The notes: a model not told the origin generated them from the letters alone. A stretch of DNA of 64,000 nt from Candidatus Limnocylindrales bacterium (GCA_035559535.1 DATMBG010000022.1:192568-256567), one strand, 5' to 3'; positions 2,954 to 57,180 are shown, counted from the stretch's first letter. A program made the numbers and translations.

Positions 2954-2965
2954 AGGAATAAGCAG

Positions 2966-3138
2966 GAGAGTGTGGGAGTGTGGGAGTATGGAGGTATGGG
3001 AGTAGGGAAGTAGGGAAGTGTGGGAGTGTGGGAGTGTGGAAAGTAAAGTGTTCATACCTCCATACCCCCATACCCCCATACCTCCATACTCCCATACCCC
3101 CATACCTCCATACTCCCACACTCCCGTACTTTCATACC
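2966..3138. repeat. heptamer-repeat palindromic element, copy A1 (G-rich TGGGAGT-like arm / center / C-rich ACTCCCA-like arm)
   Basis: About 10 x 7-nt units RTGGGAG on one side, ~13 nt center, reverse-complement units on the other side. Forms a long imperfect hairpin. Lies between the two mutase subunit genes. Confidence 0.75.
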
Positions 3139-4908
3139 TTAAAAAACGGCGGGATCTTTGTAGTCTCCGTACAATTCTCGAAGTGTACCCATAATTTCCC
3201 CTTCTGTGGCATAAACCTTTACGGCCTCCAAAATCCGAGGCATGAGGTTTTCATTTTTCTCTACCGCCTCTCGTAGTCTATCCAGTGCCTTATCTACTTC
3301 TCTTTGATTTCGGGATTTTTTAACTTCTGCCAATCGTTCCTTTTGTCGGTCTTCTTCTGCCGGGTCGAATTCAAAGACCTCGATGGGTTGTTGAACTTCG
3401 GACTGATAGGCATTTACACCGACGACCAGATAATCCTTTTTTTCGATTTTTTGTTGATACTGATAGGCAGCTTCTGAGATTTCCTTTTCGATATATCCCT
3501 TCTCTATGGCTGTAAGCATCCCTTCGAGCATACTTCCCTTGCCGAGGGTCTCGATTTTTTCTATATACTCTTGGGCTTTTTCTTCCATGGTATTGGTTAG
3601 AGATTCTACGAAATAAGATCCGGCCAGTGGATCAATGGTATTGACGACCCCACTTTCATGTCCGATGATTTGCTGGGTGCGTAAGGATATCATCATGGCC
3701 TCTTCCGAAGGAATATCATAAGCTTCGTCGTATCCACTGACATGGAGAGATTGAGTTCCTCCCAGGACCGCGGCCAGTGCCTGAATGGTTCCCCGGATGA
3801 TGTTATTTTTAGGTTGTTCCCGAACCAGGGTAGAACCCAGGGTCTGGGTATGGAACCGAACCCGCATAGATTCGGCTTTTTTAGCCCCATATCGTTCTTT
3901 CATAATTCTGGCCCACAACCTTCTGGCAGCTCGAAACTTGCTGATCTCCTCAAAAAAATCATTGTGGCAACCGAAGAAGAAGGACAGCCGGGGTGCAAAA
4001 TCGTCTAGGGCGAGGCCGCGTTGAAGACCGCCTTCCACATAAGCCATCCCTTGGGCCAGGGTAAAAGCGAGTTCCTGTACGGCAGTAGACCCGGCCTCAC
4101 GGGTATGATAACCCGAGATGGAAATGGTATTCCAGTTGGGAACATAGCGGGTACAATACTCTACGACATCCAGGGTAATCTTAAAAGCCGGGCGGGGAGG
4201 AAGACCAAAGGTTTTCTGCCCATGGAATTCCTTTAACGAATCGTTCTGGACCGTTCCCCGCAAATCTTCCCATTTAACACCCCGTTTCTCGGCCACAGCC
4301 AATAAAAGACTCAACAACACAATTGCCGGATGGTTGATGGTTAAAGAAATACTCACCCGATCCAGCGGAATTCCTTCAAACAGCTCTTCCATATCCCGAA
4401 GGGTATCAATGGCAACTCCTAATCGTCCCACTTCTCCTTCTGCCAGAGGATGATCTGAATCATAACCTGTGAGAGTCGGATGATCAAAGTCCGTACTAAT
4501 ACCTGTTTGTCCATGCTTGAGAAGGAAGCGGTACCGTTCGTTGGTTGATCGGGCCGTTCCAAATCCGGCAATCTGCCGTCGGGTCCACAGCCGCCCCCGA
4601 TACATGGTGGGATATACCCCTCGGGTAAATGGAAAGGCACCGGGAAAGTTCAGATCCTTCAAATAATCCAGCTCCTTCACATCTTCAGGGGTGTAGACCC
4701 GCTTGACTTCCAGGTCAGAAACAGTTCGAAAGGTTTCACGCTGTTCAGGAGTCTTCTTAAGGACAGGAGCCAGGATCTCCGATTCCCATTTTTCTTGGGT
4801 TTCTTTGATCTGCTCCAGGGCTTTTTCATTAAAAAGTTTAGGGTCCATCTTTAAACCTCCGATTAACAAGGTATTTGGTTTTTTAAATTTCGGCCGTCTG
4901 TCCGCCAT
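3139..4908 (-). CDS. methylmalonyl-CoA mutase family large (catalytic) subunit, split type without B12 domain
   Basis: FTRGVYPTMYRGRLWTRRQIAGFG...TDFDHPTLTGYDSD signature of MCM/ICM catalytic barrel, 589 aa. Co-oriented and adjacent to the separate B12-binding subunit. Confidence 0.85.
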   Translation of the reverse strand: MADRRPKFKKPNTLLIGGLKMDPKLFNEKALEQIKETQEKWESEILAPVLKKTPEQRETFRTVSDLEVKRVYTPEDVKELDYLKDLNFPGAFPFTRGVYPTMYRGRLWTRRQIAGFGTARSTNERYRFLLKHGQTGISTDFDHPTLTGYDSDHPLAEGEVGRLGVAIDTLRDMEELFEGIPLDRVSISLTINHPAIVLLSLLLAVAEKRGVKWEDLRGTVQNDSLKEFHGQKTFGLPPRPAFKITLDVVEYCTRYVPNWNTISISGYHTREAGSTAVQELAFTLAQGMAYVEGGLQRGLALDDFAPRLSFFFGCHNDFFEEISKFRAARRLWARIMKERYGAKKAESMRVRFHTQTLGSTLVREQPKNNIIRGTIQALAAVLGGTQSLHVSGYDEAYDIPSEEAMMISLRTQQIIGHESGVVNTIDPLAGSYFVESLTNTMEEKAQEYIEKIETLGKGSMLEGMLTAIEKGYIEKEISEAAYQYQQKIEKKDYLVVGVNAYQSEVQQPIEVFEFDPAEEDRQKERLAEVKKSRNQREVDKALDRLREAVEKNENLMPRILEAVKVYATEGEIMGTLRELYGDYKDPAVF

Positions 4909-14209: not shown

Positions 14210-14290
14210 CTAAACACCCCCCTGGCCCCCCTCCAGGGGGGATTCAGCAGCAACCCTATGTCAGTCCCCCCTGGAGGGGGGCCAGGGGGG
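14210..14290. repeat. perfect 28-bp inverted repeat with 21-nt loop (cacccccctggcccccctccagggggga ... tcccccctggaggggggccaggggggtg)
   Basis: Direct reading: the right arm is the exact reverse complement of the left arm. Confidence 0.7.
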
Positions 14291-14393
14291 TGTTTCTTTT
14301 TCCACCTACTAAATGGATACGGATACCGGGTTTAAAACCTGTCTTTACTTATGAAAGGCAAACGGGTATAAAAAGAAGAAAGGAGGCTATTTC

Positions 14394-27069: not shown

Positions 27070-27180
27070 TAGAAGGGTGGGGGTGTGGGAGGGTGGGGGT
27101 AGATGTAAATTCTCCCATACTTTTACGCTCCTTTCTACCCTTCCATACTCCCATACTCCCACACCCTCATACTTCCCTCT
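27070..27180. repeat. heptamer-repeat palindromic element, copy A2
   Basis: gggtgggggtgtgggagggtggggg / center agatgtaaatt / ctcccatac...ccatactcccatactcccacaccctcatac. Sits in the 112-nt gap between the PEP-CTERM gene and the exosortase gene. Confidence 0.7.
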
Positions 27181-29772: not shown

Positions 29773-30693
29773 ATGTCGACCCAACGTATTGTATCTTTAA
29801 TTCCCAGTGGTACAGAAATTGTTTGCGCACTCGGTTTTGAAGCCCAACTGGTCGGACGTTCCCACGAGTGTGACTTTCCCGAATCGGTTAAGCGATTACC
29901 GGTTTGTACTGAGCCCAAGTTCAACCCGGAGGGTACCAGTTATCAAATTGATCAGCGGGTCAAAGCCATTTTGCAGGAGTCTTTGTCGGTGTATCGGGTT
30001 TATGCCGAAAAATTGAGGCAATTACAACCGGATGTCATTGTGACCCAATCTCAGTGCGAAGTTTGTGCCGTCAGTCTACAGGAGGTAGAACAAGCTGTTT
30101 GCGATTGGTTGGATTTTCGTCCTCACATAGTTTCACTGGCACCGGCTACCCTTTCCGATATCTGGGCCGATATAGCCCGTGTGGCAGAAGTTCTGGAAGC
30201 TCCTCAACGAGGCAGGGAGCTTATCCAGCGATTAAAGCAACGGGTAGAAGCCATTACCGAGAAGACCCGTGCCCTATCTGAACGACCCACCGTTGCCTGT
30301 ATTGAGTGGATCGAGCCTTTGATGGCTACCGGCAACTGGATGCCTGAACTGATTGAAAGGGCTGGTGGGGTGAATTTGTTTGGTGAGGCCGGTAAACATT
30401 CCCCCTGGATGGCCTGGGAGCAGTTATTGGAAAAAGATCCGGACGTTATCCTGGTTTTACCCTGCGGGTTTGATATGCCACGAACCCGCGAGAATATATC
30501 TGTTTTAATGCAAAAGTCGGGTTGGTCTGATCTGCAAGCCGTACGCAGAGGACAGGTTTACCTGGCCGATGGGAATCAATACTTTAATCGTCCAGGGCCC
30601 CGGGTTGTAGAGTCGTTGGAAATTCTGGCCGAAATCTTACACCCGGATCGGTTCCGGTTTGGACATAAAGGGACCGGATGGCAACACCTTTAG
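29773..30693 (+). CDS. BtuF/TroA-like periplasmic-binding-protein-fold protein (cobalamin/iron-siderophore class); no obvious signal peptide
   Basis: IVSLIPSGTEIVCALGF...VGRSHECDFP N-terminus typical of BtuF-like class III binding proteins. Confidence 0.65.
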   Translation: MSTQRIVSLIPSGTEIVCALGFEAQLVGRSHECDFPESVKRLPVCTEPKFNPEGTSYQIDQRVKAILQESLSVYRVYAEKLRQLQPDVIVTQSQCEVCAVSLQEVEQAVCDWLDFRPHIVSLAPATLSDIWADIARVAEVLEAPQRGRELIQRLKQRVEAITEKTRALSERPTVACIEWIEPLMATGNWMPELIERAGGVNLFGEAGKHSPWMAWEQLLEKDPDVILVLPCGFDMPRTRENISVLMQKSGWSDLQAVRRGQVYLADGNQYFNRPGPRVVESLEILAEILHPDRFRFGHKGTGWQHL

Positions 30694-31838
30694 AGTCGAT
30701 GATCCAGCAGCTCCGCTAAAAACGCCAGTACCTGCTCATAAACTGTATCATGACCGAGAATTTCCAGTTCCTGGCTCAGGAGTCTTGTTTCACTTTCTTT
30801 ATTCAGGCAGGTGATCTTTCCGGCTACGGGAGCTCCCCCAAATTCTACATGGGTTTGTAAATAAGGGCAATGGGAAGATCCATCTCTACCTGTAACTACA
30901 AATTGTGCCGGCGGATCACTTTCCGTGATGAGCTTAAGTGAACGAAGATCTGCCCGGCCGGAGTTTATAGCCGGAGAAGTTTTAACCTGGATGAGAATGG
31001 TTCGATTCAGGGCGGCCAGTTTCATCTGGTAGATATGCCGCTCCGTCCATCGGGGCCTTGAGACAGGATGCCATTTCAATCGACTGGCCAGCCAGCCAAT
31101 AATAAGAAGCGCCTGACTGGAAATGGAATCCATGGAATCGGAGTTGCATTCAATTTCTACAAAACTCAGTCGGTTCAGGCAAGATAGCCGGTCTGGAGCA
31201 TCAAAGAGTCCGGCCACTGCAACCCGCCAGGGGGTTAAACGAGACCAGTTCAGGTCGCTAAAGGCCACCCAGGGAAATTCACGCCGAATGAAAGCTGCTA
31301 GTTCCATAAGTCCCTCTTCCGGATTGGGCAGGCGTGCGGAGTCGATAATTACGCGATCGGAGGTCTCAACCAGCTCTTTAAACAATCGATTCCCGAGAGC
31401 CGGAACATCCCGCCACCATAAAACAACTGGCAGATCCGATACCAAAAGCGACCTCACAATACTCGGTAACCGAAAGATTCCTTCCCCCTCAGCAGTTACC
31501 ATGATCTGCTCACAGCAAACTTGCTTACGACCTCCCACAGAGACATGGCACTGGGCAGTCACCCAGGCGTGGACGACCGAGGAAGGAGCTTCGGGTTTCG
31601 GAAGCATCACAATACCCCGGCTCGGATGTTCTGGGGAGACCTCTGCCATAATTTTACTTATCTCTCCGGCACTTCCCGAGCCGGGCGCATAGATCAGGAG
31701 ATTCAAGACACATACCCGCAGAACCATCTGCTGACCTTCTGCCTGGGCTGCCTCAGCCATCTGCTTCCATAATTCCTGTAAATCTCGCTCGATTTCCACG
31801 GCATTTACACCGTTTGAAATGTGGAATTCAGTATGCAA
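30690..31838 (-). CDS. hypothetical protein, possibly glucose-6-phosphate dehydrogenase assembly protein OpcA-like
   Basis: Last gene of the co-directional gnd-zwf-prx cluster. N-terminal LRVCVLNLLIYAP resembles the OpcA N-terminal motif. Assignment rests on context. Confidence 0.4.
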   Translation of the reverse strand: MHTEFHISNGVNAVEIERDLQELWKQMAEAAQAEGQQMVLRVCVLNLLIYAPGSGSAGEISKIMAEVSPEHPSRGIVMLPKPEAPSSVVHAWVTAQCHVSVGGRKQVCCEQIMVTAEGEGIFRLPSIVRSLLVSDLPVVLWWRDVPALGNRLFKELVETSDRVIIDSARLPNPEEGLMELAAFIRREFPWVAFSDLNWSRLTPWRVAVAGLFDAPDRLSCLNRLSFVEIECNSDSMDSISSQALLIIGWLASRLKWHPVSRPRWTERHIYQMKLAALNRTILIQVKTSPAINSGRADLRSLKLITESDPPAQFVVTGRDGSSHCPYLQTHVEFGGAPVAGKITCLNKESETRLLSQELEILGHDTVYEQVLAFLAELLDHRL

Positions 31839-32223
31839 CTGCTTAAATCAAGAACCGGAAATCAGAAATCAAAGTACCGGGAGTTAGCCGTTAGCTTGAC
31901 TTCTCACTTCCGACTCCTGGTTCCGTTTGTAACGGTTCGCCCTTACCCCGACCTCCCATAGGCGCCAGGTTAAGGTACCCCCTTCCTGTCCCTCCCCCGT
32001 TTCCCAAGGGAGGGAACTTCACTTCAAAGTTCCTTCCTCTGCCAAGCGGGGGAAGATGAGTAGGTTAAACGTCTCGTTTGACATTAAGGAGACCCTCCTC
32101 AGGGATCTCACTCTTATCCTGGCGCGTAGGCCCCGACCCCTCCTATGCACCGGGATAAGTCCAGAAGGAATTACTTTACTAACCCCAACACCCCCTGCCT
32201 CTCCCATTTGAGGGTTAGAGCTG

Positions 32224-32853
32224 TTATTTTTCTAAATCTTCCAGGGCTTTTAAGAGAGGTTCCAGCGCAGGAGCTTCTCGAATGTCATGGACATCAATAT
32301 AACGAAGGATACCCTGCTTATCCACAACGAATATAGCACGCTCATTGGCCAGTCTCACCTGGTCTGCATAATTTTCATCCCGGAAGATCCCGTACTTTTT
32401 GGCGACTTCATTGTTGAAATCACTTAGCAAGGGATAAGATAATTTAAGGGATTCTGCCCAAACCTTATGGGCGAAGACGCTATCAGCACTTATACCCAGT
32501 ACCTGGGCATTTTTTTCTTCAAACCGGGAAAGTTCTTTCTGGAATGAAGAAACCTGCTGAATTCAAACAGGGGTCCAATCCAGAACATGAAAGGAGAGAA
32601 CGACATTTTTCTTTCCCTTAAACTGGCTTAGAGTAACCTTTTCTTTACCGTCGACTGGCATACTGGCCGGCAGGGTAAAGTCCGGGGCAGGCTCTCCAAC
32701 CTTGAGATGCGTTTGAGTTCTAACCGGAATCCGTTCATCGGCGCTGTAGGCGTAGGGGATCAAGGTACCCAGACTTAACATTAAAATAACTAGTAGGTCA
32801 ATCGTCTTGACAGTCAAATAATGTACTTTTTTTCTCATTCTAGAACTTCTCAA
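32224..32853 (-). CDS. candidate selenocysteine-containing peroxiredoxin (PrxQ/Bcp-like, exported) with in-frame TGA at the peroxidatic Cys position
   Basis: ORFs 32563..32853 and 32224..32430 are in the same frame, separated only by TGA at complement(32563..32565). Translation reads ...VVLSFHVLDWTPV-[TGA]-IQQVSSFQKELSRFEEKNAQVLGISADSVFAHKVWAESLKLSYPLLSDFN..., which is collinear with PrxQ ...DFTPVC-TTE...VLGVS.D....H.AW....L.FPLLSD. N-terminal signal peptide present. Confidence 0.6.
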
Positions 32854-32906: not shown

Positions 32907-34463
32907 TTACAGTCGTCTCCATCTTCGACCATCTTTTTGAATCAGCTCATCGGCTTCTTTAGGTCCCCAGGTTCCCGCTTCATAATTAGGAAACTGGGGG
33001 GTTGTTTGTTGCCAGGCCTTCAAGATGGGCATGACTAACTGCCAGGAAACTTCTACCATATCACCTCGGGCGAAGAGAGTAGAATCTCCCAGCATGGCAT
33101 CGAGTAGGAGTCGTTCGTAGGCTTCAGGGGACTTCTTTCCAAAGGAAGTTCCGTATTGAAAATCCATATTGACTGGGCGGATATGAATGGCCTGGCCGGG
33201 TAATTTAGCTTCAAACTTGAGGGAGATACCTTCATCGGGCTGAATGCGCAGGATCAGGGTATTAGGTTCCAGAGGTCCTTCGGCGGCATTTTTGAAAAGG
33301 AGGTGGGGGACCTGGCGGAACTGGATAGCGATTTCAGTCACCCGTTTGGGTAAACGCTTACCGGCCCGGACGTAAAAAGGGACCTCGGCCCATCGCCAGT
33401 TATCGATGAGGAATTTAACCGCCGCGTAGGTTTCCGTATTAGACTTGGGATTTACATTTTCTTCCTGCCGATAACCTTTAACCCTTTGTCCACCCACGGA
33501 GCCTTCTCCATATTGCCCCCGGACTGCCACTTTATTCACCTCCTGGATCAGGCATTCCGGATCTGTTGGGAGAGGACGAACGGCCCGCAACACCTTTGTT
33601 TTTTCATCTCGCACGTCATCGGCTTTTAAAGAAATGGGGGGTTCCATGGCAACCAGGGCCAGAAGTTGGAGCATATGATTTTGGATCATATCCCGAAGGG
33701 CTCCGGCCTGCTCATAGTAACCACCCCGGTTTTCTACTCCGATAGTCTCGGCGGCGGTGATTTGTATGTGGTCAATATAACGTCGATTCCAGAGAGGTTC
33801 GAAAATACCGTTGGCGAATCGCAGGACCATGATATTTTGAACAGTTTCCTTACCCAGATAGTGGTCGATCCGGTAGACCTGATCCTCGGTAAAAACCTTC
33901 AGAACTTCCCGGTTTAACGCCCGTGCACTTTCCAGATCATAACCGATGGGTTTTTCGATGATGATTCGGACCCAGCTCCCCGGGTTAGAGCGGTTTAGTC
34001 CGATAGCGCCCAGCATTTGGATAATATCTGTATAGAGGCTGGGAGGCGTAGAGAGGTAAAACAATCTATTGCCACAGGTTCCACGCTCGCGATCTATTTG
34101 AGCCAATAACCCGGCCAGCATTTGGTAATTGTCCTGATTTTTATAATCCATGGGGAGGTAAAATAAACCTGCGGCAAAATTTTCCCAAAGGGTGGGATCG
34201 ACCGGGCCCCCTTCATAGAATTGGTGGACGGCGTTGCGCATAGCGGCACGGAAGGTATCGTGGGTCATAGGGGTACGGGCTGCCCCCACAACGGAAAATC
34301 CTTCACCCAGCAAATTTTGCTGCGCCAGACTATAAAGGGCTGGAACGAGCTTACGTTTAGTTAAATCTCCTGAGGCTCCAAAGATGACCACCACACAAGG
34401 TTCTGCTACCCGCTGCAGGCGTAAACCCTCTCGAAGAGGGTTTTCAGAGAGAGTTGCTTCCAT
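32907..34463 (-). CDS. zwf: glucose-6-phosphate 1-dehydrogenase
   Basis: GASGDLTKRKL NADP-binding motif. RIDHYLGKE active-site motif. 518 aa. Confidence 0.95.
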   Translation of the reverse strand: MEATLSENPLREGLRLQRVAEPCVVVIFGASGDLTKRKLVPALYSLAQQNLLGEGFSVVGAARTPMTHDTFRAAMRNAVHQFYEGGPVDPTLWENFAAGLFYLPMDYKNQDNYQMLAGLLAQIDRERGTCGNRLFYLSTPPSLYTDIIQMLGAIGLNRSNPGSWVRIIIEKPIGYDLESARALNREVLKVFTEDQVYRIDHYLGKETVQNIMVLRFANGIFEPLWNRRYIDHIQITAAETIGVENRGGYYEQAGALRDMIQNHMLQLLALVAMEPPISLKADDVRDEKTKVLRAVRPLPTDPECLIQEVNKVAVRGQYGEGSVGGQRVKGYRQEENVNPKSNTETYAAVKFLIDNWRWAEVPFYVRAGKRLPKRVTEIAIQFRQVPHLLFKNAAEGPLEPNTLILRIQPDEGISLKFEAKLPGQAIHIRPVNMDFQYGTSFGKKSPEAYERLLLDAMLGDSTLFARGDMVEVSWQLVMPILKAWQQTTPQFPNYEAGTWGPKEADELIQKDGRRWRRL

Positions 34464-34519: not shown

Positions 34520-35995
34520 TTACTGTTGTCCGGTAATGCTTGCCCAGTCCGTATGGATCGGGCCAAGCTCAGGTTTATCGATACGTTCATAAAGGTGAGC
34601 CCCGAAGAAGTCCCGCTGGGCCTGGGTTAAGTTCTGGGGTAGATGGGCCGTACGATAAGTATCAAAGTAGGCCAGGCTGGCCGACATGGCCATCAGGGGG
34701 ATACCCAGGTTCTGAGCCAGCGAAACCGTTTGTCGCCAGCGGGGTTGTGCTTCGCTTACCCAGGTTCGAAAGTCAGGATCCAAAAGGAGATTGGGTAAAT
34801 CCGGTCTACGTTGGTAGGCCTGTTTAATCTTATCCAGAAACTGCGCCCGAATGATGCATCCCCCCTTCCAGATCCGACTTATCTCCCCCAGGTTAATATG
34901 CCATTGATACCTGTTCGAGCCTGCCCGAATCAGCGCCATCCCTTGGGCATAAGAGCAAATCTTACTGGCATATAGGGCATCATGAACGGCGGAGATCAAC
35001 TCCTTTTTATTTCCCGTGTAGGAGGAAAGAGAAATCCCCGGATCTCCGGTTTGCGGGCCGGGGATCTGCTGACTTGCCTGGACCCGTTCTTCTTTGAGAT
35101 TGGAAAGTAAGCGGGCTTCAATGGCTGCATGGATCGTTGGAATGGCAACCCCTAAGTCCAATGCCACATGGGAGGTCCACAGGCCGGTCCCCTTCTGACC
35201 GGCCTTGTCCAGAATCAAATCAACCAGTGGCTTGCCGGTTTCTGGATCTTTCACCGTGAAGATTTTTGCCGTAATCTCGATCAGGTAGGAGTTAAGTAAA
35301 CCTTTATTCCACTGAAAGAAGATGTCGGCCAGCTCATCGGCTCCCAGGCCTAAGACCCGTCGCAGGATATCATAGGCTTCAGCAATAAGCTGCATGTCCC
35401 CGTATTCGATACCGTTATGAATCATTTTGACAAAATGGCCTGCACCGTCCGGACCCACATAGGTCACACAGGGACCATCGTCTACTTTGGCCGCGATAGC
35501 TTCAAAGATCGGACGGATCTCCTCGTAAGCTTCCCGTTCTCCACCCGGCATCAAGGAAGGCCCCCACAATGCTCCCATCTCACCCCCGGAGACACCGGAA
35601 CCGATAAAGCGGAGACCTTCTGCGGCCAGTTCTTTTTCACGCCGTTGGGTATCTTGAAAGTAAGAATTACCCCCGTCAATAATAATATCCCCTGGCTCCA
35701 GATACGGCTTTATCTGACCGATAGTCCAATCTACAGGATCACCGGCCTTGACCAGAAGCATAATTTTGCGAGGTCTCTCCAACGCTTGAACAAAATCCCG
35801 AATCGACCTGGTTCCTATGATTTTCTTTCCCTGTGCCTTGGTCCGTAAAAATTCATCTACTACCTCCGGAGTACGATTCCATACCACAACCGAATAACCA
35901 TGACGTTCGATATTGAGAACCAGATTTTGTCCCATTACAGCGAGTCCTATCAGGCCAAACTGGGCTTTTCCAATCTCTGTTTTTGCGGTAGACAT
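34520..35995 (-). CDS. gnd: 6-phosphogluconate dehydrogenase (decarboxylating)
   Basis: GLIGLAVMGQNLVLN N-terminus. Conserved C-terminal domain. 491 aa. Confidence 0.95.
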   Translation of the reverse strand: MSTAKTEIGKAQFGLIGLAVMGQNLVLNIERHGYSVVVWNRTPEVVDEFLRTKAQGKKIIGTRSIRDFVQALERPRKIMLLVKAGDPVDWTIGQIKPYLEPGDIIIDGGNSYFQDTQRREKELAAEGLRFIGSGVSGGEMGALWGPSLMPGGEREAYEEIRPIFEAIAAKVDDGPCVTYVGPDGAGHFVKMIHNGIEYGDMQLIAEAYDILRRVLGLGADELADIFFQWNKGLLNSYLIEITAKIFTVKDPETGKPLVDLILDKAGQKGTGLWTSHVALDLGVAIPTIHAAIEARLLSNLKEERVQASQQIPGPQTGDPGISLSSYTGNKKELISAVHDALYASKICSYAQGMALIRAGSNRYQWHINLGEISRIWKGGCIIRAQFLDKIKQAYQRRPDLPNLLLDPDFRTWVSEAQPRWRQTVSLAQNLGIPLMAMSASLAYFDTYRTAHLPQNLTQAQRDFFGAHLYERIDKPELGPIHTDWASITGQQ

Positions 35996-38329: not shown

Positions 38330-38704
38330 TTAGAGGCCATTCTTATCTGGAATTTCTTTTATTTCTGTCTTTACCGAAAAAGAAGTAAAGCCAGGTCTGG
38401 TATAAACCCAGATTGCTTCTTTCATCACCGTTTGGTAAAACCTTCTTCCTTCCTGACCGAGTTTTTTCCATTCCTCCCTGGTATAAACCAAAAGATCCAC
38501 CGGCACGGGAAGTTCCCCGGTATCCCATGTAAGCGTGCGTTTCTCAAAGGGTTGGTCTGAACTTTCCAGGATAACAATCAAATCAAGATCACTTCCTACC
38601 CCCCAATCCCCACGGGCATAGGAACCAAAATAACCTATCTGTAATATTTCTTTTCGACTTTGTACAATCTTTTCGGCCCAGGAACGTATGGCCCGGTCGA
38701 CCAT
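38330..38704 (-). CDS. nucleotidyltransferase (MNT-type, Pol-beta superfamily) antitoxin-like
   Basis: GSYARGDWGVGSDLDLIVIL motif. Start placed at ATG 38704 (MVDRAIRSW), which gives the typical ~124 aa and an 11-nt overlap with the HEPN stop. The longer ORF would overlap HEPN extensively. Confidence 0.7.
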   Translation of the reverse strand: MVDRAIRSWAEKIVQSRKEILQIGYFGSYARGDWGVGSDLDLIVILESSDQPFEKRTLTWDTGELPVPVDLLVYTREEWKKLGQEGRRFYQTVMKEAIWVYTRPGFTSFSVKTEIKEIPDKNGL

Positions 38705-38711
38705 TTCAGCG

Positions 38712-39125
38712 TCAGGCCATTTGAAAACGGACGAATTCAAGGATCTCACGGGCATATCGAATCGCCTCTTCGCTTTGTAGGGGACCATAATGTTCAAAGG
38801 GTGCTCCCTCGGGATGCCCATTGGGATAACGGGAAGGTATGTAAAAATTATCAAGAAAGCGCCCTTTCTCCACCAGCCCTTGGGGAACGGGCACAGTTGC
38901 CGGTAACTCTTGAAGGAGTCTGGCTATTGCGTGTCCCCAGGCTTCCTGTCCCAGGTAAAGGTGTAAAGCCTTCACAGCTTTTTCTGCAGATTGTTGAGCA
39001 GCAAAGCATGCCCACTCATGACGCTCCGCCCGGCGGGAATCTTCAGCCTGTTCTAAATCTCGCAACGCTTGATTCAACCAGTCTCGGCTACGATTAGGCA
39101 TGATCCCTCTCCTTCTGAAGGGCAT
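38712..39125 (-). CDS. HEPN domain protein (toxin-like partner of the MNT)
   Basis: YIPSRYPNGHP carries the R-x4-6-H HEPN motif. 137 aa. Confidence 0.8.
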   Translation of the reverse strand: MPFRRRGIMPNRSRDWLNQALRDLEQAEDSRRAERHEWACFAAQQSAEKAVKALHLYLGQEAWGHAIARLLQELPATVPVPQGLVEKGRFLDNFYIPSRYPNGHPEGAPFEHYGPLQSEEAIRYAREILEFVRFQMA

Positions 39126-42574: not shown

Positions 42575-42688
42575 ACACCCTCCTTATAGTTGCAAAAACA
42601 CCCCTTCAACCCTTTAAGTAAATTTCTAGTCGATATTTATAGTATACCTCTATTTAGACAAAATCCATAGAACTATTTTATTTAAAAG

Positions 42689-42818
42689 TATGGGAGTGTG
42701 GGAGTATGGGGGTAGGGAAGTGGGGAAGTATGGGGGTAGGGAAGTGGGAAAGATAGAACTCCCATACTCCTACACTCCCACACTCCCATACTCCCATACT
42801 CCCACACTTCCACACTCT
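42689..42818. repeat. heptamer-repeat palindromic element, copy A3
   Basis: tatgggagtgtgggagtatgggggtagggaag... / center agatagaa / ctcccatactcctacactcccacactcccatactcccatactcccac. In the divergent promoter region between gltA and the lipoprotein gene. Confidence 0.75.
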
Positions 42819-42841
42819 TACTTAGATTCTATTCGAAGGAC

Positions 42842-44251
42842 ATGAAACCCTGGGTCACTTTTTTGCTAGAACTGCTTGCCCTGGCGGGAATGTTGAGCTG
42901 TAGTACGTCTGAAAAACAAAGTTATGTGGCGCCAAAGGAAACTCCAACAACCCCTACGGAAAGGGATATATTACCCAAAAGTAGCGTGAATTGGATTGGA
43001 CATTGGTTGGGTCAGGATAAACGTGAAACCCTTGTAAGGGAAGTAGCTCGGGAATTCGAGTTTTTGAATCCGGAGATAGAGGTTAATCTCAAATTCCCTC
43101 AAGAGATATTCGGAAATCGTAGCAAGGCTTTAATCGCCAAACAGTATGCCGACAGGATTCGTAAAGGTAACCTGGATTGGGATGTTATCTGGATGGATCC
43201 CGGAATTTATCAATTGGTGGCCCAGGATCTGGGGGATGCCGAGTGGGGAAAAAAGTATCTGGTTAACTTTGAGGAGGTGGATGGCTTTAAGGAAACGCAG
43301 AAGCCTTTTATTCTGGAAGACCCTATCTATAAGAATCAAACCGGTGGTATACTCATCGGACCTTTTATAGAAGGATTCTATTGGGCCCTTTTTTATAATA
43401 CGGAAGTTGCCAAAAGAATAGGAATAGAAATTAAGCAAGAAGATATGACTTTCGACGATCTGTTAGGATATGTTAAAAAGGTTTACGAATACAGGCAGAA
43501 GAACCACGTGGATATCGCGGCATTTTATGAGGCCAGGGATGCATTTTCCTTGGGGGTTCTGTTTCAAAGCCTGGTCACCTCAGAGCTTAGGGATTTTCGT
43601 AAAGTAAAAGAAGAGGTAACCTCGGAAGAAAAATGTGCAGCGTTACTGAAGACTTTTCGAGCCTTTGAAGAGTTAGGGAAATATGATCCCTTAATCCCTT
43701 CCCATGCCAGTAATCTCTGGTTTGAAACGAAGCATCTTGCCTTAGAGGATAAGGTACTTTTCCAGATCGGGGGAACCTGGATGTACAATACCTGGCGTCA
43801 GATATCCGAAGACAAAATGAAGAAGATGATTCCTGCTGAGTTACCCGTTTTTCAGGAAGTGAATTATTATCCCGGTGGCTATATCCCAACCTGGGCGGTG
43901 TTTAAAGATGCACCCCATCGGGATAACGGCATTAAGTTACTGTTATTCTGGAGTACACCCAAGGTAGCCGAAAAGTGGGTACGGTATACGAAAAGTCCAA
44001 CGGGTTTACGAGGTCATTTCTCCACTCCGGAAATTGGAGCCGATGTGTTTGAAAAATTTCAACATAGAATCACAACCAAATACGGTAAAAATGTTTTGGC
44101 AGTTTCCAATGCCGGGTATTTATTAGGAAAGGAAAACAGGCTCCTTTTGAAGGACATATCCGAAAAAATTATAGAACTCCTGGAAGGCCGAACAACGGCA
44201 GAGACGGCATATCACGAAGTCATCGTAAAAGCCGGATTGGAGAAAAATTAG
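42842..44251 (+). CDS. extracellular solute-binding-like lipoprotein (lipobox LSC), likely sensory partner of the downstream two-component system
   Basis: Signal peptide with LAGMLSCS lipobox. SBP family 1-like composition. Immediately upstream of the kinase. Confidence 0.65.
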   Translation: MKPWVTFLLELLALAGMLSCSTSEKQSYVAPKETPTTPTERDILPKSSVNWIGHWLGQDKRETLVREVAREFEFLNPEIEVNLKFPQEIFGNRSKALIAKQYADRIRKGNLDWDVIWMDPGIYQLVAQDLGDAEWGKKYLVNFEEVDGFKETQKPFILEDPIYKNQTGGILIGPFIEGFYWALFYNTEVAKRIGIEIKQEDMTFDDLLGYVKKVYEYRQKNHVDIAAFYEARDAFSLGVLFQSLVTSELRDFRKVKEEVTSEEKCAALLKTFRAFEELGKYDPLIPSHASNLWFETKHLALEDKVLFQIGGTWMYNTWRQISEDKMKKMIPAELPVFQEVNYYPGGYIPTWAVFKDAPHRDNGIKLLLFWSTPKVAEKWVRYTKSPTGLRGHFSTPEIGADVFEKFQHRITTKYGKNVLAVSNAGYLLGKENRLLLKDISEKIIELLEGRTTAETAYHEVIVKAGLEKN

Positions 44252-44268
44252 ACGCTGAATTAAAGGAC

Positions 44269-46155
44269 ATGCCAAAGACAAAGAGGTTTCAGGATAGTTT
44301 AATCTTTAAAATAGGAGTCGTTATTGTTGCGGTAGAATCTATCATCCTTTTTGCCCTGGGTTTTTATTATATTAATCGATTTTCCAACGAGATTGATGAA
44401 AGGATTCACCGACAACTCCAAATTCCGGGGATTCTCATGGGCAAAGGTTTATTAAATTATGAATCGGTAGAGGATAAAAAAACCATGGAACAATTGGTTG
44501 GGGAAACATTGATAGATGCCCTGTTGATCGGTATTAACCACAAAGTATTTTACTCCCTCAATGGGGATTATGTGGGACGAAAAATTACGGAAATACCCGA
44601 CATAAAGTTCATGGACAGACTGGATGAAACCCTGACAGAGATTGAAGAAATGAAGATATCGGAAGGTCAGAAGAACTATCGAATCAGTATAGCCCCTATT
44701 CGCCTGGAAGATGGGAAAATGGTTGGCTTTTTGTATATTAAGGCCGGAACCGATCAACTGGAACATAAAAAAAAGATCCTTACAATGGTTTTTGTAGCTG
44801 GCTCTCTTTTTTGTATTCTACTTACAACCTGTGCTACCGTTTGGTTACTCCATTGGATTATCTCTAAAAGGATTCAAAATACCCTGGCCTATTTAAAGAG
44901 GGTGGAGGCGGGCCATCTGGAAACAAGAATAGATCCTATCTTATCTCAAGATGAAATAGGCCTTCTCCAAAAAGGCATTAATTCCATGGTATCGGAAATA
45001 GAAGAACAGACCAGAGCACTTCAGGAAAGCGAAGATCGGTATAAAGGCCTGGTGGAGTCCTGCCCGGATGCTATTTTTGTCGAACAGGAGGGAAAAATAG
45101 TTTATGTAAATCCGGCGGGTTTGGATCTTTTCGGTTATAAAGCCATATTTGAGTTAAAGGGATATGGCCTTCAGGATTTATTCATTCGGCAAGATGATAA
45201 TCCCATCGAAAAATGGATAAGCTCCACCTCTGAGACCCGATCTTCTTTTATGGAGGGGAAACTGACTCGAAAGGATGGAGAACTCATCGATGTGGAAGTA
45301 ATACTTACCCTTACCCGGTATCAGGGTAAACCGGCCGTACAAATAATGGTTCGAGATGTCACCGAGATAAAGAATCTCAGACAAAAGACCCAGAGAATGA
45401 AACAACTTGCGGATTTGGGACAGCTTTCCGCAACCATCGCCCATGAAATTCGTAATCCCCTGGCGTCTATCCGTTTAGGTCTTGAGAGGCTTTCCGACCG
45501 GCTGGCGATTCCTGAAGCTTATAAAACTATTTTTAGCAATATTGAGCAAGGTATCTCACGAATCCAGGCCATCATCGATGGAATTTTAGACTTTACCCGC
45601 CCGGTAATACCCGATTTAAAGAAAGTAAACCTTCATGATCTATTAGATAGCAGTCTTTCTTCGGTACAGAACGAGTTGGAACAGGCCAGGATAATTATTA
45701 TAAAAATTTACATGCCGATTCAACCCTACGTTCTTGTAGATCCTTATCAAATGATCCAGGTCTTTATTAATCTCTTTCTGAACGCAAAACAGGCCATGCC
45801 ATCCGGTGGAAAGCTTACAATCCGTACGATTCTTCGAATTCCTCCGGCCAATCGCAGGGCAAGCTTCGGCTCAACCCAGGACAAACTCCCTCAAGATATC
45901 ACCGACCGGGTCCCTCTTATAGAAGTTCAAATTGAGGATACGGGAAAAGGAATCCCTCCGGAGAATCTGGATAAGATTTTTACTCCCTTCTTTACTACAC
46001 GGGCCAATGGAATCGGTTTAGGACTGGCCGTAGTTTCTCGAATTCTTGAACAACATCAAGCTCAAATATGTGTTGAAAGTCAGGTTGGAGTTGGCACAAA
46101 ATTTATCATAAAACTTCCTTTCCCAGGAGACGACTATGAAAAAAGCTACTCGTAA
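44269..46155 (+). CDS. sensor histidine kinase (two TM, HAMP, PAS, HisKA, HATPase_c)
   Basis: H-box ATIAHEIRNPLASI. N/G1/G2 boxes (DTGKGIPPEN, GIGLGLAV). Confidence 0.85.
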   Translation: MPKTKRFQDSLIFKIGVVIVAVESIILFALGFYYINRFSNEIDERIHRQLQIPGILMGKGLLNYESVEDKKTMEQLVGETLIDALLIGINHKVFYSLNGDYVGRKITEIPDIKFMDRLDETLTEIEEMKISEGQKNYRISIAPIRLEDGKMVGFLYIKAGTDQLEHKKKILTMVFVAGSLFCILLTTCATVWLLHWIISKRIQNTLAYLKRVEAGHLETRIDPILSQDEIGLLQKGINSMVSEIEEQTRALQESEDRYKGLVESCPDAIFVEQEGKIVYVNPAGLDLFGYKAIFELKGYGLQDLFIRQDDNPIEKWISSTSETRSSFMEGKLTRKDGELIDVEVILTLTRYQGKPAVQIMVRDVTEIKNLRQKTQRMKQLADLGQLSATIAHEIRNPLASIRLGLERLSDRLAIPEAYKTIFSNIEQGISRIQAIIDGILDFTRPVIPDLKKVNLHDLLDSSLSSVQNELEQARIIIIKIYMPIQPYVLVDPYQMIQVFINLFLNAKQAMPSGGKLTIRTILRIPPANRRASFGSTQDKLPQDITDRVPLIEVQIEDTGKGIPPENLDKIFTPFFTTRANGIGLGLAVVSRILEQHQAQICVESQVGVGTKFIIKLPFPGDDYEKSYS

Positions 46156-47509
46156 AAAGATCTTACTTGTAGAAGATGACAGATTATTCCAACAGATGGT
46201 GAAGGATTTCCTTGTAGATTTCTACGAAGTGATACCTTCTGAGTCCGCCGAGAGTGCGTTGAATATTTTAAGGAAAACCGTTCCAGATTTGATTTTGCTG
46301 GATATTCGATTACCTGAAATGGACGGTATAGAAGCTTTAAAAAGAATCAAAACTCTTTGGCCCGATATACCCATTTTAATGTTAACGGCAGTAGATCGAG
46401 TAGCAACGGTGGTCGAGGCTATGAAATTAGGTGCCTATGATTATCTGACCAAACCCCTGGTCGGCAAAGAACTCTTGATAAAGATCGACCGGGCTTTGGA
46501 ATCCCTGGAGATTAAGCGAGAACTCGAACGGCGTCGGAAGTTGCAACTGGCTACAAATAGAGAGTATCGGCTTATAGGAGTTAGTGCAGCTTTAGAAAAG
46601 GTAAGGGAACAAATACAAATTGCAGCGGTTTCCGATATCACTGTTTTAATCCAGGGCGAAACGGGAACCGGTAAGGAACTGGTTGCTCGAGAGATTCATG
46701 CTCGTAGTTCCCGTGCCGATGAGCCTTTTGTGGCTGTGAATTGTGGAGCTATTCCTAAAGATTTGATAGAATCAGAATTCTTTGGTTATAAAAAAGGAGC
46801 TTTTACGGGAGCTCAGAGAAATGAAGTGGGAAAATTTCAGTTGGCGGACCGTGGAACGCTACTGCTGGATGAAATTAGCGAGTTACCCCTCGATGCGCAA
46901 ACCAGGCTTTTACGGGTTTTGGAAGAGGAAGAATTTTACCCGGTCGGCAGTACCGAGCTTGTGAGAGTGGATGTTCGAATCATAGCCTCAACCAACAAAA
47001 ATTTGAAACACCTGATGGAACAGAGAGCTTTTAGAGAAGACCTGTTTTTCCGCTTGAACGTGTATCCCATTTTCCTTCTACCCCTTCGGGAACGTCCGGA
47101 GGATATTATTCCTCTGGCCGAATATTTTATGGAACGTTTTAGTACCAAATTTGGTAAGAATTTCACGGCGATTAGTCCAGAAGCCAAAGAGATCCTGCTA
47201 AAATATCCCTGGAGGGGAAATGTTCGAGAACTTCGCAACGTCATCGAACGGGTGGTCATCTCCGAGAAAGGAACCCTCATTGAAAAAGAACATCTCTCCT
47301 TCATCGAGACCCTTTCTCCCATCGAGCTCTCCAAAGACTCTCTTAAACTTCCCGAGATCGGTTTAGATAGGATGTTAGAAGAAACAGAAAAAAGGTTACT
47401 ACTCGAAGCCCTGGAACTTGCCAGGGGAAGCAAACCCAAAGCCGCCGAATTGTTAAAGATCTCTCCCCCCTCCTTTTATTACCGTTTAGAGAAATATGGA
47501 CTACACTAG
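46136..47509 (+). CDS. sigma-54-dependent response regulator (NtrC family: REC + AAA+ + Fis-type HTH)
   Basis: Receiver domain with the phospho-acceptor Asp. GETGTGKELVAREIH Walker A. GAFTGA sigma-54 contact motif. C-terminal HTH. Confidence 0.9.
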   Translation: MKKATRKKILLVEDDRLFQQMVKDFLVDFYEVIPSESAESALNILRKTVPDLILLDIRLPEMDGIEALKRIKTLWPDIPILMLTAVDRVATVVEAMKLGAYDYLTKPLVGKELLIKIDRALESLEIKRELERRRKLQLATNREYRLIGVSAALEKVREQIQIAAVSDITVLIQGETGTGKELVAREIHARSSRADEPFVAVNCGAIPKDLIESEFFGYKKGAFTGAQRNEVGKFQLADRGTLLLDEISELPLDAQTRLLRVLEEEEFYPVGSTELVRVDVRIIASTNKNLKHLMEQRAFREDLFFRLNVYPIFLLPLRERPEDIIPLAEYFMERFSTKFGKNFTAISPEAKEILLKYPWRGNVRELRNVIERVVISEKGTLIEKEHLSFIETLSPIELSKDSLKLPEIGLDRMLEETEKRLLLEALELARGSKPKAAELLKISPPSFYYRLEKYGLH

Positions 47510-48210: not shown

Positions 48211-48499
48211 AATAACGTATGAATGGTAAGGGAAAGTACACTTTTTACAATTCTAACTTTAATATAGTTGCGAGATTGATGCCAATCCGCAAATCCTTTG
48301 TTAGGACAACTGCTGGCGAGTCGGACTAAGCGGACGTAGTTAGGGTTTATGATGAAATTGAAGGAGCTACTTTTTTATTGACAAGAGCTTTTTTCTCAAA
48401 ATATTCTTTTTTATCCCAACAAGGTATCAGGATTTCCTATACCTCTAATCCCCTGTCGTTACTGCGTTGCAAATCTCTAGTTATCAAGTTTTCCGGCAG

Positions 48500-48610
48500 T
48501 GAGAGTACGGGAGTGGGGAGGTATGGGAGTGTGGGAGTTCTATCTTCCCCACTTCCATACCCCCATACTTCCCCACTCCCATCCTTCCATACTTCCATAC
48601 TAAAAGTATA
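48500..48610. repeat. heptamer-repeat palindromic element, copy A4
   Basis: gtgagagtacgggagtggggaggtatgggagtgtgggag / center ttctatctt / ccccacttccatacccccatacttccccactcccatccttccatacttccatac. Confidence 0.7.
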
Positions 48611-55911: not shown

Positions 55912-57180
55912 ATGAGTCAGGAGGGCCTAAAAAGAAGCCTGGAAGAATGGATGACGACCAAAAGAGGGTCGCCTACCTCTTCTTCAGAGCAATCCAATAT
56001 CGGGAGATTACTTCAGAAAGTTAATCTCTCGGACATTGAAATGTCAGATTCACCTTTCGCTTTAAGGGGGAAAACCGATTGGCCCACGCTCAAAAATTCC
56101 CTCAAGGATCAAGGGCAAAAATACCCTATTATCTTGAAAAGAGAAGAGGGCAGATACCGAATCGTTGCCGGATTCAGACGGCTAAAAGCCTTGAATGAGC
56201 TGGGCTATAGCTCCGTGATGGCCGTGGTATATGATAAGCTGACAGACGAAGAAATGGAGCTATTTTACCTCATGGATGTTCTTCTCTATCAAGAAACCGA
56301 CCTTTTGCGTCTATCCGAGTTACTGTCTGAAAAAGACGAAATTCTGGCCAAAAGTCTGGGTATTCCCCAGGCACTGTATGATTCCTTTGTAAAAATCGCC
56401 CTGGCCTCTGAAGAGATCAAAGAAGCTTTATCTCGTCAAGATATCAGCCTGAAACAGCTCCTGGAAATTCTTAAATCCGATCATCCCCAAGAATTGTTGG
56501 AAGAACTCTTAGCCTCTCAAGTTACTTCCCGAGAAATGAACCTCCTGAATCAGCTTATTTCTTTGAGAAAAGTCATGCCGGTCTCTGGAGAGGAAATTCA
56601 AAAGTGGATTGATATCGAAAGCCTGGCCATCCGGGTCTATAAAGATTTGAAACATCTATCTGAGAAAATTAAGATTCTAAAGGAGGTTTATCCCCAAATT
56701 CCCTTAGATATCCGGAAATATCTGGTAACTGAACTTAAAGAGCTGGAAGAGACCGGAATCTTTAATATCATCCATCAGCATCCGGGCGCAGAACATCTCT
56801 ATGAAGAGGTGACCGGGGAAGATTATGAGGAGATTAAAATCCTCTCGGACGAGATTTTTAATACCCAGATCCTTAATTCGGAAATCCCGGTTGTGGTTAA
56901 TCTGAATCTGGCAGGGTATCCTCCCTGTGAAGAACTTCAGCAGGCCCTGGGGATGTTACAGGCTAAATATCACGATAAACTTAGGTTCTATGCTGTTAAC
57001 ATCATGGAATCAGACTTAGGAGGTCGATTGCCCCATTTGGTTAAAATCGGAAAAGATTTTATGGTCAAAAACCTCCCTCGCATTATGATCTTTTGGAAGG
57101 GTAAGAAAGTAGCAGAGTCTAACAAGATTGATGATCTGGAAGAGGTCTTCAGGCTGGTTCGATCGGTTATAAAGGCGTGA
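55912..57180 (+). CDS. ParB/Srx-like N-terminal domain protein fused to a C-terminal thioredoxin-fold-like domain
   Basis: ParB N-domain motif YRIVAGFRRLKA. C-terminal ~110 aa resembles a Trx fold (GYPPCEEL at the CxxC-equivalent position, LPRIMIFWKGKKV). Confidence 0.55.
   Translation: MSQEGLKRSLEEWMTTKRGSPTSSSEQSNIGRLLQKVNLSDIEMSDSPFALRGKTDWPTLKNSLKDQGQKYPIILKREEGRYRIVAGFRRLKALNELGYSSVMAVVYDKLTDEEMELFYLMDVLLYQETDLLRLSELLSEKDEILAKSLGIPQALYDSFVKIALASEEIKEALSRQDISLKQLLEILKSDHPQELLEELLASQVTSREMNLLNQLISLRKVMPVSGEEIQKWIDIESLAIRVYKDLKHLSEKIKILKEVYPQIPLDIRKYLVTELKELEETGIFNIIHQHPGAEHLYEEVTGEDYEEIKILSDEIFNTQILNSEIPVVVNLNLAGYPPCEELQQALGMLQAKYHDKLRFYAVNIMESDLGGRLPHLVKIGKDFMVKNLPRIMIFWKGKKVAESNKIDDLEEVFRLVRSVIKA

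Follow-up and report, generated by a model that had tools for sequence, protein, structure and literature searches.

A probable UGA-encoded selenocysteine in a peroxiredoxin of a "Candidatus Limnocylindrales" bacterium

Introduction

The window analyzed here, a 64-kb (64,000-nucleotide) stretch of DNA from a "Candidatus Limnocylindrales" bacterium (GCA_035559535.1, DATMBG010000022.1:192568-256567), contains two minus-strand open reading frames (ORFs), 32563..32853 and 32224..32430, that resemble the two parts of a single peroxiredoxin (Prx). The question raised by this locus is whether the TGA codon between them ends a truncated protein or encodes selenocysteine (Sec). The original prediction favored the second option, with Sec in the position of the peroxidatic Cys and a SECIS element directly downstream. 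It also assigned the protein to the PrxQ/Bcp type and proposed that it is exported and linked to the supply of NADPH by the neighboring genes.

An interrupted peroxiredoxin gene

Translation of both ORFs confirms that they share one reading frame, 32853..32224 on the minus strand, and that the only stop within it is the TGA at 32565..32563. The likely start codon of the gene, referred to below as prx, is the ATG at 32838. Its main features are as follows.

32224..32838, minus strand: predicted selenoprotein peroxiredoxin CDS; 204 codons, with the ATG at 32838..32836, UGA as codon 92, and the stop codon TAA at 32226..32224
32563..32565, minus strand: UGA, candidate Sec codon; U92 of the precursor and approximately U60 of the mature protein, in the peroxidatic position of the T-x-x-U motif
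32574..32572, minus strand: codon for T89, the Thr of the T-x-x-U motif
32338..32340, minus strand: codon for the conserved active-site Arg, R167 in NERAIFVVD; an invariant alignment column, present in all Sec forms

When Cys is placed at the TGA, the 204-aa product matches the AhpC-TSA domain (Pfam ID PF00578) over the entire profile (positions 1 to 124 of 124; E = 1.1e-37), matches the Redoxin domain of Pfam as well, and retrieves 154 peroxiredoxin sequences from the PDB. Its W-T-P-V-U segment aligns with F-T-Q-V-C of 2ywn and F-T-F-V-C of 38ky, placing the TGA at the peroxidatic Cys, as proposed. Alignment with Cys homologues confirms the identity of this column: among the 80 closest relatives of prx in a set of bacterial and archaeal genomes with one genome per species, 41 have TGC or TGT in this position and 39 have TGA. 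Homologues with TGA and with TGC/TGT are referred to below as Sec forms and Cys forms, respectively.

Gene callers split prx into two fragments in every assembly, and the 91-aa product of 32838..32563 is already recorded as a called gene. The GenBank accession number HWP47052.1 stands between those of OpcA and Zwf, the products of the genes that flank prx; prx may therefore already be annotated in GenBank.

Two adjacent fragments could also represent a naturally split gene, whose two polypeptides assemble into one protein. In one related lineage (locus L001), an ATG follows the TGA directly, which makes a second product callable. However, in the related loci L005, L008, and L012, as in the window itself, the TGA is followed by ATT or ACC, the frame offers no start codon until 44 codons further on, and the arrangement has no ribosome-binding site logic; moreover, a break at this point would cost the protein its catalytic residue, and the hairpin described below would occlude initiation. 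A split gene is accordingly extremely improbable, and prx is treated here as a single gene read through its TGA codon.

Conservation of the in-frame TGA

The TGA codon is found on 14 independent contigs, i.e., the window and 13 more drawn from JGI, ENA, NCBI, and Logan, which represent five gene lineages with 67 to 97% protein identity. Loci L005 to L007 (JGI and ENA) and L008 to L011 (NCBI metagenome-assembled genome [MAG] GCA_030550175.1 and Logan) retain both the TGA and the gene order gnd-zwf-prx-opcA. Loci L001 to L004, with 87% protein identity, retain the TGA in an unrelated gene context, and L012, a 67%-identical paralogue found in the same MAG as L008, retains it as well. The search for close relatives with TGC or TGT, which would have pointed to an error or a recent mutation, found that all of them keep TGA.

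At least 67 homologues at a greater distance, spread over several phyla, have the same codon. Specifically, TGA forms are found in Anaerolineae, Ardenticatenia, Thermoanaerobaculia, Terriglobia, Gemmatimonadota, Polyangia, and Vulcanimicrobiota, and one of them comes from a cultured isolate, Levilinea saccharolytica KIBI-1 (Anaerolineae; locus L066). In addition to the 39 TGA forms of the one-genome-per-species set, metagenomes encode at least 30; the matches listed are all at 52% identity or less and include no new member of the window's own clade.

The sequence past the TGA evolves as a protein-coding sequence. Its dN/dS ratio (codons +21 to +111) is 0.053 in the comparison with L005 and 0.023 in the comparison with L008, and the respective values upstream of the TGA are 0.057 and 0.183. 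The conservation of the protein past the TGA, noted in the original prediction, is thus real, and since purifying selection in this segment is as strong as it is upstream, the segment must be translated.

These data bear on the possibility that the TGA arose through an error in sequencing or assembly, or through a recent nonsense mutation from TGC or TGT, and that the locus yields only a 91-aa fragment or nothing functional. Such an explanation would agree with the split gene calls in all assemblies and with the fact that neither the window nor the 1.48 Mb of fetched loci shows any Sec machinery (see below). However, the TGA is seen in four data sources, in all five lineages, and in the distant homologues; TGC or TGT occurs in no close relative; dN/dS downstream of the TGA is 0.02 to 0.05; and a Sec-form-specific RNA structure follows the codon. 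An error common to independent platforms and assemblers is implausible, and the presence of the TGA on 14 contigs from five lineages excludes a sequencing error or a recent mutation, which makes a pseudogene or an artifact highly improbable. The preferred reading is that of a functional gene with a decoded UGA.

RNA structure downstream of the UGA

The mRNA of prx folds into a hairpin just past the UGA, where a bacterial SECIS element would be expected.

32514..32552, minus strand: SECIS-like hairpin within the CDS, with an 8-bp lower stem, a 2-bp middle stem, a 4-bp upper stem, and the apical loop GAAC

The lower stem is formed by UUUCUUCA (32552..32545) paired with UGAAGAAA (32521..32514) and begins 10 nt past the UGA, and the 23 nt that it encloses form the 2-bp and 4-bp stems. 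In the minimum free energy (MFE) fold, the apical loop GAAC occupies 32535..32532, and its first nucleotide lies 27 nt past the UGA. The hairpin claimed in the original prediction is therefore present, and a foldable SECIS candidate exists, but its details differ: the distance from the UGA is 10 rather than 11 nt, the lower stem has 8 rather than 7 bp, and 23 rather than about 25 nt are enclosed.

The MFE fold of the 81-nt hairpin context of the window has a z-score of -3.25. Over nt 10 to 57 past the codon in question, 34 distinct Sec forms average an MFE of -17.9 kcal/mol and a z-score against dinucleotide shuffles of -3.36, and the respective averages of 40 Cys forms are -7.0 kcal/mol and +0.13; the Mann-Whitney p value for the z-scores is 1.6e-13. 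The hairpin of the window clade is A/U-rich and weaker than those of most Sec forms (-12.1 kcal/mol and a z-score of -1.8 for the 48-nt segment). Among the Sec forms, the apical loop starts 23 to 30 nt past the UGA, in most cases at 27 nt; it begins with GA in 22 of the 34 sequences and has a G in loop position 1 or 2 in 27 of them.

RNAalifold finds no consensus structure in the codon alignment of the 34 sequences, because the register of the stem shifts by 1 nt between clades. With four close sequences, it finds the hairpin conserved with no covariation, and there is no compensatory change within the window clade. A named consensus structure and per-sequence folding with Cys controls were used for this reason. 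The named structure was placed on the ungapped codon alignment, where 74.7% of the cells are paired, versus at most 46% when the structure is slid along the alignment, a margin that is inflated because the structure was derived from the same sequences. Changes on both sides are found in 7 pairs and 50 cells, and the covariation score is 0.289, compared to 0.126 for shuffled alignments; none of 500 shuffles reaches the observed value. Rfam searches, with the gathering thresholds for the whole window and with E values of up to 10 for 32400..32700, return only tRNA-Lys and chance matches; Rfam holds no usable bacterial SECIS model.

Selection at the nucleotide level is also evident in this segment. 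In the comparison with L001, 17 consecutive codons past the TGA are unchanged (permutation p = 1.6e-4). Within the window clade, dS is 0.09 in the hairpin codons and saturated in the rest of the gene, and third positions are variable in 4 of the 16 hairpin codons versus 121 of 146 elsewhere (Fisher p = 3.8e-6).

Judged by its position, its G-containing loop, its specificity for Sec forms, and the suppression of synonymous changes, the hairpin behaves as a SECIS element. It is very probable that 32224..32838 encodes a peroxiredoxin with a UGA-encoded selenocysteine in the peroxidatic site and a SECIS hairpin downstream. This central claim of the original prediction is supported by the conservation of the TGA, the alternation of Sec and Cys in the same column, purifying selection, the Sec-specific hairpin, and synonymous suppression. 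By analogy with the established bacterial mechanism, UGA codon 92 would not be read as a stop in translation; instead, the hairpin 10 nt downstream would bring SelB-GTP-Sec-tRNA(Sec) to the ribosome for the insertion of Sec.

Selenocysteine machinery and the use of TGA

The 64-kb window contains no selA, selB, selD, or tRNA-Sec gene, and its single tRNA gene is that of tRNA-Lys; Pfam and NCBIfam scans of 30 window ORFs likewise reveal no sel genes. In the 1.48 Mb of fetched loci, tblastn searches with SelA, SelB, and SelD of Escherichia coli return nothing relevant, and ARAGORN finds four tRNAs (in L045, L062, and L072) but no tRNA-Sec. Three window ORFs within 42842..47509 are similar in size to SelA and SelB. 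Two of these encode a histidine kinase and a sigma-54 response regulator; the third, 42842..44251, has no NCBIfam match and corresponds to a solute-binding-protein homologue in L005. Reports of Sec decoding in Chloroflexi and Acidobacteria (PMC1794560) count as indirect support for a Sec-decoding host.

A candidate for a second selenoprotein, likewise indirect support, is found in the organism that carries L001. The convergent neighbor of prx in L001 to L004 encodes a YruB/NrdH-like glutaredoxin (TIGR02196, E = 2.7e-22) with an in-frame TGA that produces a U-R-P-C motif. Downstream of this TGA lies a hairpin with an 8-bp stem, the G-first loop of which is found 23 nt past the UGA; the z-score of this hairpin, -1.3, is not significant.

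A genome-wide reassignment of TGA to a sense codon, e.g., for Trp or Gly, would be another way to read through prx, and TGA is indeed the rarest stop in the window. However, it ends 4 of the 49 other long ORFs, the standard code yields long ORFs with full-length Pfam and NCBIfam matches all along the window, and the lone in-frame TGA falls exactly in the position of the redox-active Cys. A scan for other TGA-interrupted genes in the window reveals none that is convincing. Since TGA is a normal, if rare, stop codon here and prx is the only convincing interrupted gene, a reassigned code is ruled out for practical purposes and deserves hardly any credence.

The UGA might also be read through by means other than dedicated Sec insertion. 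Near-cognate or suppressor decoding could place Cys or Trp at codon 92, or Sec might be inserted only when selenium is available, and the hairpin would then slow the ribosome or promote read-through. In other systems, Cys is known to be misincorporated at Sec codons; Cys at codon 92 would yield a normal peroxiredoxin, and the window and the fetched loci lack recognizable sel genes. On the other hand, the position of the hairpin and its G-containing loop are as described for bacterial SECIS elements (PMC1088965), the hairpin is shared with homologues from phyla with documented Sec decoding (PMC1794560), and this Prx family comprises experimentally verified selenoproteins (Sohling et al., 2001, as cited in PMC13188914). 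Furthermore, a lineage that required Cys could simply use TGC or TGT, as 41 of the 80 relatives do. Read-through that bypasses regular Sec insertion is thus unlikely, although it is the least improbable of the alternatives, and Sec decoding of codon 92 remains the favored interpretation.

Active site and peroxiredoxin type

The proposed assignment to the PrxQ/Bcp type is the best fit but holds only in part. It agrees with the top PDB matches, which are of the BCP type (2ywn, E = 3.7e-26; 3hjp, E = 1.1e-22), with Prx1-type proteins and AhpE close behind, and with the existence of Cys relatives that have the Cp-x4-Cr arrangement of peroxidatic (Cp) and resolving (Cr) cysteines. The equivalog scores and the resolving Cys do not agree with it. 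The prx product scores below every NCBIfam equivalog cutoff, with 66.8 (cutoff, 140) for the Bcp equivalog PRK09437, 56.2 (cutoff, 260) for PrxQ, and 77.7 bits (cutoff, 270) for the PrxU equivalog NF040737; because of this last score, it is not regarded as an orthologue of the Eubacterium acidaminophilum protein. In the U-I-Q-Q-V-S segment, Ser occupies position +5, where the resolving Cys of Cp-x4-Cr would be, and the mature protein (172 aa, approximately 19.6 kDa) contains no Cys at all. Many BCPs lack Cr, so its absence does not exclude membership in this group.

The full PxxxTxxU motif is likewise absent. Thr and Arg are kept, and Pro is replaced with Val (H-V-L-D-W-T-P-V-U) throughout the window clade. 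Among 115 Cys homologues, Val is found in position -7 in 4 and Phe in one more; the closest Cys homologues that share the Val, P0012, P0016, and P0033, have it in the motif Y-V-L-D-W-T-P-V-C-T-x-E-M-C, which includes the BCP-type Cp-x4-Cr. As Val is also found in Cys homologues, it seems to represent a subfamily variant and not a loss of function.

With Sec as the only redox residue and no resolving Cys, the protein should act like a 1-Cys peroxiredoxin that depends on an external reductant. In the likely reaction, the selenolate, positioned by the Thr of T-x-x-U and by the Arg, would attack the peroxide and be converted to selenenic acid, which would be recycled by that reductant, as in 1-Cys peroxiredoxins.

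The N terminus and the genomic context

The protein starts with a segment that has the features of a signal peptide.

32743..32838, minus strand: signal-peptide-like N terminus, residues 1 to 32, which begins with MRKK, has the core LVILMLSLGTLI, and ends in A-Y-S before the mature ADERIP

This segment has a net charge of +3, followed by a hydrophobic 12-mer with a Kyte-Doolittle value of 2.68. The signal peptide of the original prediction is therefore borne out in its features (charge, hydrophobic core, and A-Y-S), which in turn suggest cleavage and export. The N termini encoded in L001, L005, L008, and L012 have divergent sequences with the same architecture, and the L012 paralogue is located directly downstream of a gene for a SurA/PrsA-like PPIase, an extracytoplasmic foldase. 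Because the architecture is kept in the sister lineages and L012 lies beside such a foldase, export of the prx product is likely; a Sec-pathway-type signal peptide would probably direct it out of the cell or anchor it outside the cytoplasmic membrane. Among the matches listed, a signal-peptide-like N terminus is absent from 67 other Sec forms, which appear to be cytoplasmic, and is present in the distant Cys forms of approximately 200 aa from Nitrospirota and Thermodesulfobacteriota.

In the window, prx belongs to a cluster of genes transcribed in the same direction.

34520..35995, minus strand: gnd, 6-phosphogluconate dehydrogenase (HWP47054.1); first gene of the co-directional cluster
32907..34463, minus strand: zwf, glucose-6-phosphate dehydrogenase (HWP47053.1; NCBI name); directly upstream of prx, with a 68-nt gap
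30690..31838, minus strand: opcA, glucose-6-phosphate dehydrogenase (G6PDH) assembly protein (HWP47051.1); downstream of prx, after a 385-nt spacer

The gaps within gnd-zwf-prx-opcA are 56, 68, and 385 nt. No terminator-like site is found in the gap between zwf and prx, and an alignment of the prx-opcA spacers shows an insertion of approximately 185 nt that is specific to the window and absent in its relatives. In the syntenic loci, zwf is identified by Pfam families PF00479 and PF02781. The citrate synthase of the window is HWP47060.1, and the contig that encodes it together with Gnd, Zwf, and OpcA measures 349,979 bp. The proposed gnd-zwf context holds up as far as gene order is concerned: three lineages, the window and two more, keep this order on a single strand. 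The suggested link to NADPH supply is speculative, because NADPH is not directly accessible to an exported enzyme and because prx is found in unrelated contexts in the sister lineage L001 and in the paralogue L012. At most, prx may be coexpressed with gnd, zwf, and opcA.

Taken together, these features allow a tentative proposal, held with somewhat less than even confidence: in the window clade, a cytoplasmic Sec-Prx may have become an extracytoplasmic, Cys-free "1-Sec" peroxidase with a VxxxTxxU motif, wired to gnd-zwf-opcA in one sublineage. For such a peroxidase to work, a reductant would have to be present beyond the membrane of the Chloroflexota cell. It would also represent a rare case of a selenoenzyme in an oxidizing extracellular compartment and would couple selenoenzyme expression to oxidative pentose-phosphate genes. 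The nucleotide string GAYTGGACNCCNGTNTGA could serve as a query for the exported VxxxTxxU clade.

Comparison with known systems

On sequence grounds, the prx of the window is a member of the long-known TxxU Prx selenoprotein family (PF00578/COG1225, Bcp). This family, first shown in E. acidaminophilum (Sohling et al., 2001, as cited in PMC13188914 and PMC9312934), is listed with the prokaryotic selenoproteins that have been verified by experiment. Few bacterial selenoprotein families are older or more abundant than Sec-Prx with the TxxU motif (PMC1088965, PMC1794560, PMC13188914), whose members are catalogued in surveys of prokaryotic selenoproteomes (PMC1088965, PMC1794560, PMC9312934, PMC13188914); the 2006 survey lists 12 Prx genes and several Cys-to-Sec conversions (PMC1794560). 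The prx of the window shares with this family the AhpC/TSA fold, the UGA in the position of the peroxidatic Cys, widespread Cys homologues, the conserved Thr and Arg, and a SECIS hairpin that directly follows the UGA and carries a G in its small apical loop. It differs in the signal-peptide-like N terminus, the Val in place of Pro, and the lack of Cys in the mature protein.

The cytoplasmic Sec-Prx proteins of Anaerolineae, Thermoanaerobaculia, and Terriglobia, including that of L. saccharolytica (L066), are 50 to 56% identical to the prx product and have the UGA in the same column and the hairpin at the same distance, with the loop 27 to 28 nt past the UGA. In contrast, they consist of approximately 155 aa, have no export signal, contain the canonical PxxxTxxU motif, and mostly have 1 to 5 other Cys residues. 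Their hairpins have G/C-rich stems of -15 to -25 kcal/mol, compared with the A/U-rich stem of -12 kcal/mol in the window.

Among structurally characterized proteins, the best matches are the atypical 2-Cys BCP/PrxQ proteins of Sulfolobus tokodaii (2ywn/4g2e) and S. solfataricus (Bcp4, 3hjp), with E values down to 3.7e-26. This BCP/PrxQ group, which also includes the Cys homologues P0012 and P0016 with the motif YVLDWTPVCTxEMC, has the same length and indel pattern as the prx product, and the P0012 group has Val in position -7; prx differs in having Ser for the resolving Cys and Sec for Cp. The exported Cys Prx proteins of approximately 200 aa from Nitrospirota, Thermodesulfobacteriota, and Syntrophia (P0029 and P0054) have a signal-peptide-like N terminus, a single redox residue, and 42 to 47% identity. 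Unlike prx, they use Cys (TGT or TGC) with no hairpin and contain a WPHG insertion.

Against this background, what is modestly new is, first, the host, a MAG of Limnocylindrales (Chloroflexota), and the position of the gene between zwf and opcA; a literature search found no paper linking Limnocylindrales or Limnocylindria with selenocysteine. Second, the combination of a predicted export signal with a Cys-free mature protein that has no resolving residue is seen in the window clade alone, together with Val for Pro. Existing knowledge of selenoproteins and SECIS elements does not change. For taxonomy, the use of selenoproteins would be extended to Limnocylindria, and for enzymology, the exported Cys-free form raises the question of which reductant acts on the selenenic acid outside the cell. 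For annotation, the same splitting affects dozens of homologues from phyla that include Chloroflexota and Acidobacteriota, and recognizing them restores an antioxidant enzyme and flags the respective organisms as selenium users.

Glutaredoxin-like gene of the sister lineage

In the four sister-lineage loci (L001 to L004), where the Sec-prx homologue lies in an unrelated gene context, a glutaredoxin-like gene is found beside it. Its L001 copy is as follows.

L001 10432-10662, minus strand: glutaredoxin-like gene, 77 codons, YruB/NrdH-like (E value of 2.7e-22)

This gene is convergent with Sec-prx and carries an in-frame TGA that yields a U-R-P-C redox motif, with an 8-bp hairpin (loop GUA) 23 nt past the UGA; the gene-caller product comprises only the 58-aa C-terminal portion. 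The same TGA-containing gene is present in L002 to L004, and no copy is found within the 64-kb window. The L001 gene is a candidate for a second selenoprotein of that organism.

Sec-prx loci and their surroundings

The accession numbers HWP47051.1 (OpcA) and HWP47053.1 (Zwf) in the GenBank record of the source MAG imply an intervening annotated protein at the prx locus, HWP47052.1, possibly a selenoprotein call by PGAP. Downstream of prx lies the following spacer.

Window 31839-32223: prx-opcA spacer

It contains a G-rich insertion of ~185 nt (about 31950-32135), absent from L005 and L008, the two syntenic loci, and its sole ORF is an Arg-rich junk ORF (32019-32207). L005 and L008 also encode a HEPN/nucleotidyltransferase pair (toxin-antitoxin-like; L005 5386-6157 and L008 5343-6114), flanked by rhodanese and radical-SAM genes. 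At the respective place, the window has instead a 174-aa ORF (38330-38854) with no match to NCBIfam.

For the Sec-prx paralogue L012, from the same MAG as L008 (JZ-2.bins.100), the gene directly upstream encodes a SurA/PrsA-like PPIase, and FtsH is encoded nearby; such a neighbourhood fits an extracytoplasmic role.

L012 8728-9864: SurA/PrsA-like PPIase
L012 4614-6407: FtsH

Elsewhere in the window, a 422-aa ORF (55912-57180) has a ParB/Spo0J-like domain at its N-terminus and a thioredoxin-like one at its C-terminus; it ends in TGA, with no meaningful extension past it. Four intergenic sites in the 64 kb carry palindromic arrays built of 8-nt tandem repeats, with (GGGAGTRT)n ahead of (AYACTCCC)n. 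These arrays correspond to the repeat families D1, D4 and D7 and to the inverted pairs I1 to I14, and they can fold into long hairpins.

Window 2960-3140, 27073-27178, 42678-42827 and 48496-48608: palindromic 8-nt repeat arrays

Another intergenic element, I15 (14212-14295), is a perfect 31-nt inverted repeat (AAACACCCCCCTGGCCCCCCTCCAGGGGGGA and its complement) with a 22-nt spacer.

Second hairpin and active-site motif of Sec-prx

Immediately 3' of the SECIS-like hairpin, a small second hairpin (GCCCAGGUACUGGGU; window 32492-32510, minus strand) is found inside the Sec-prx coding sequence. Most homologues share GCCCAGGU because it encodes A-Q-V; given this coding role, the second hairpin may be incidental.

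Throughout the window clade, Val, preceded by His, occupies the position at which the peroxiredoxin motif PxxxTxxC/U almost always has Pro.

Window 32586-32584, minus strand: Val-for-Pro codon of Sec-prx, position -7

Codons -4 and -5 (32575-32577 and 32578-32580, respectively) are not affected by this substitution. A few Cys-type BCP homologues (P0005, P0012, P0016, and P0033) also have Val at position -7.
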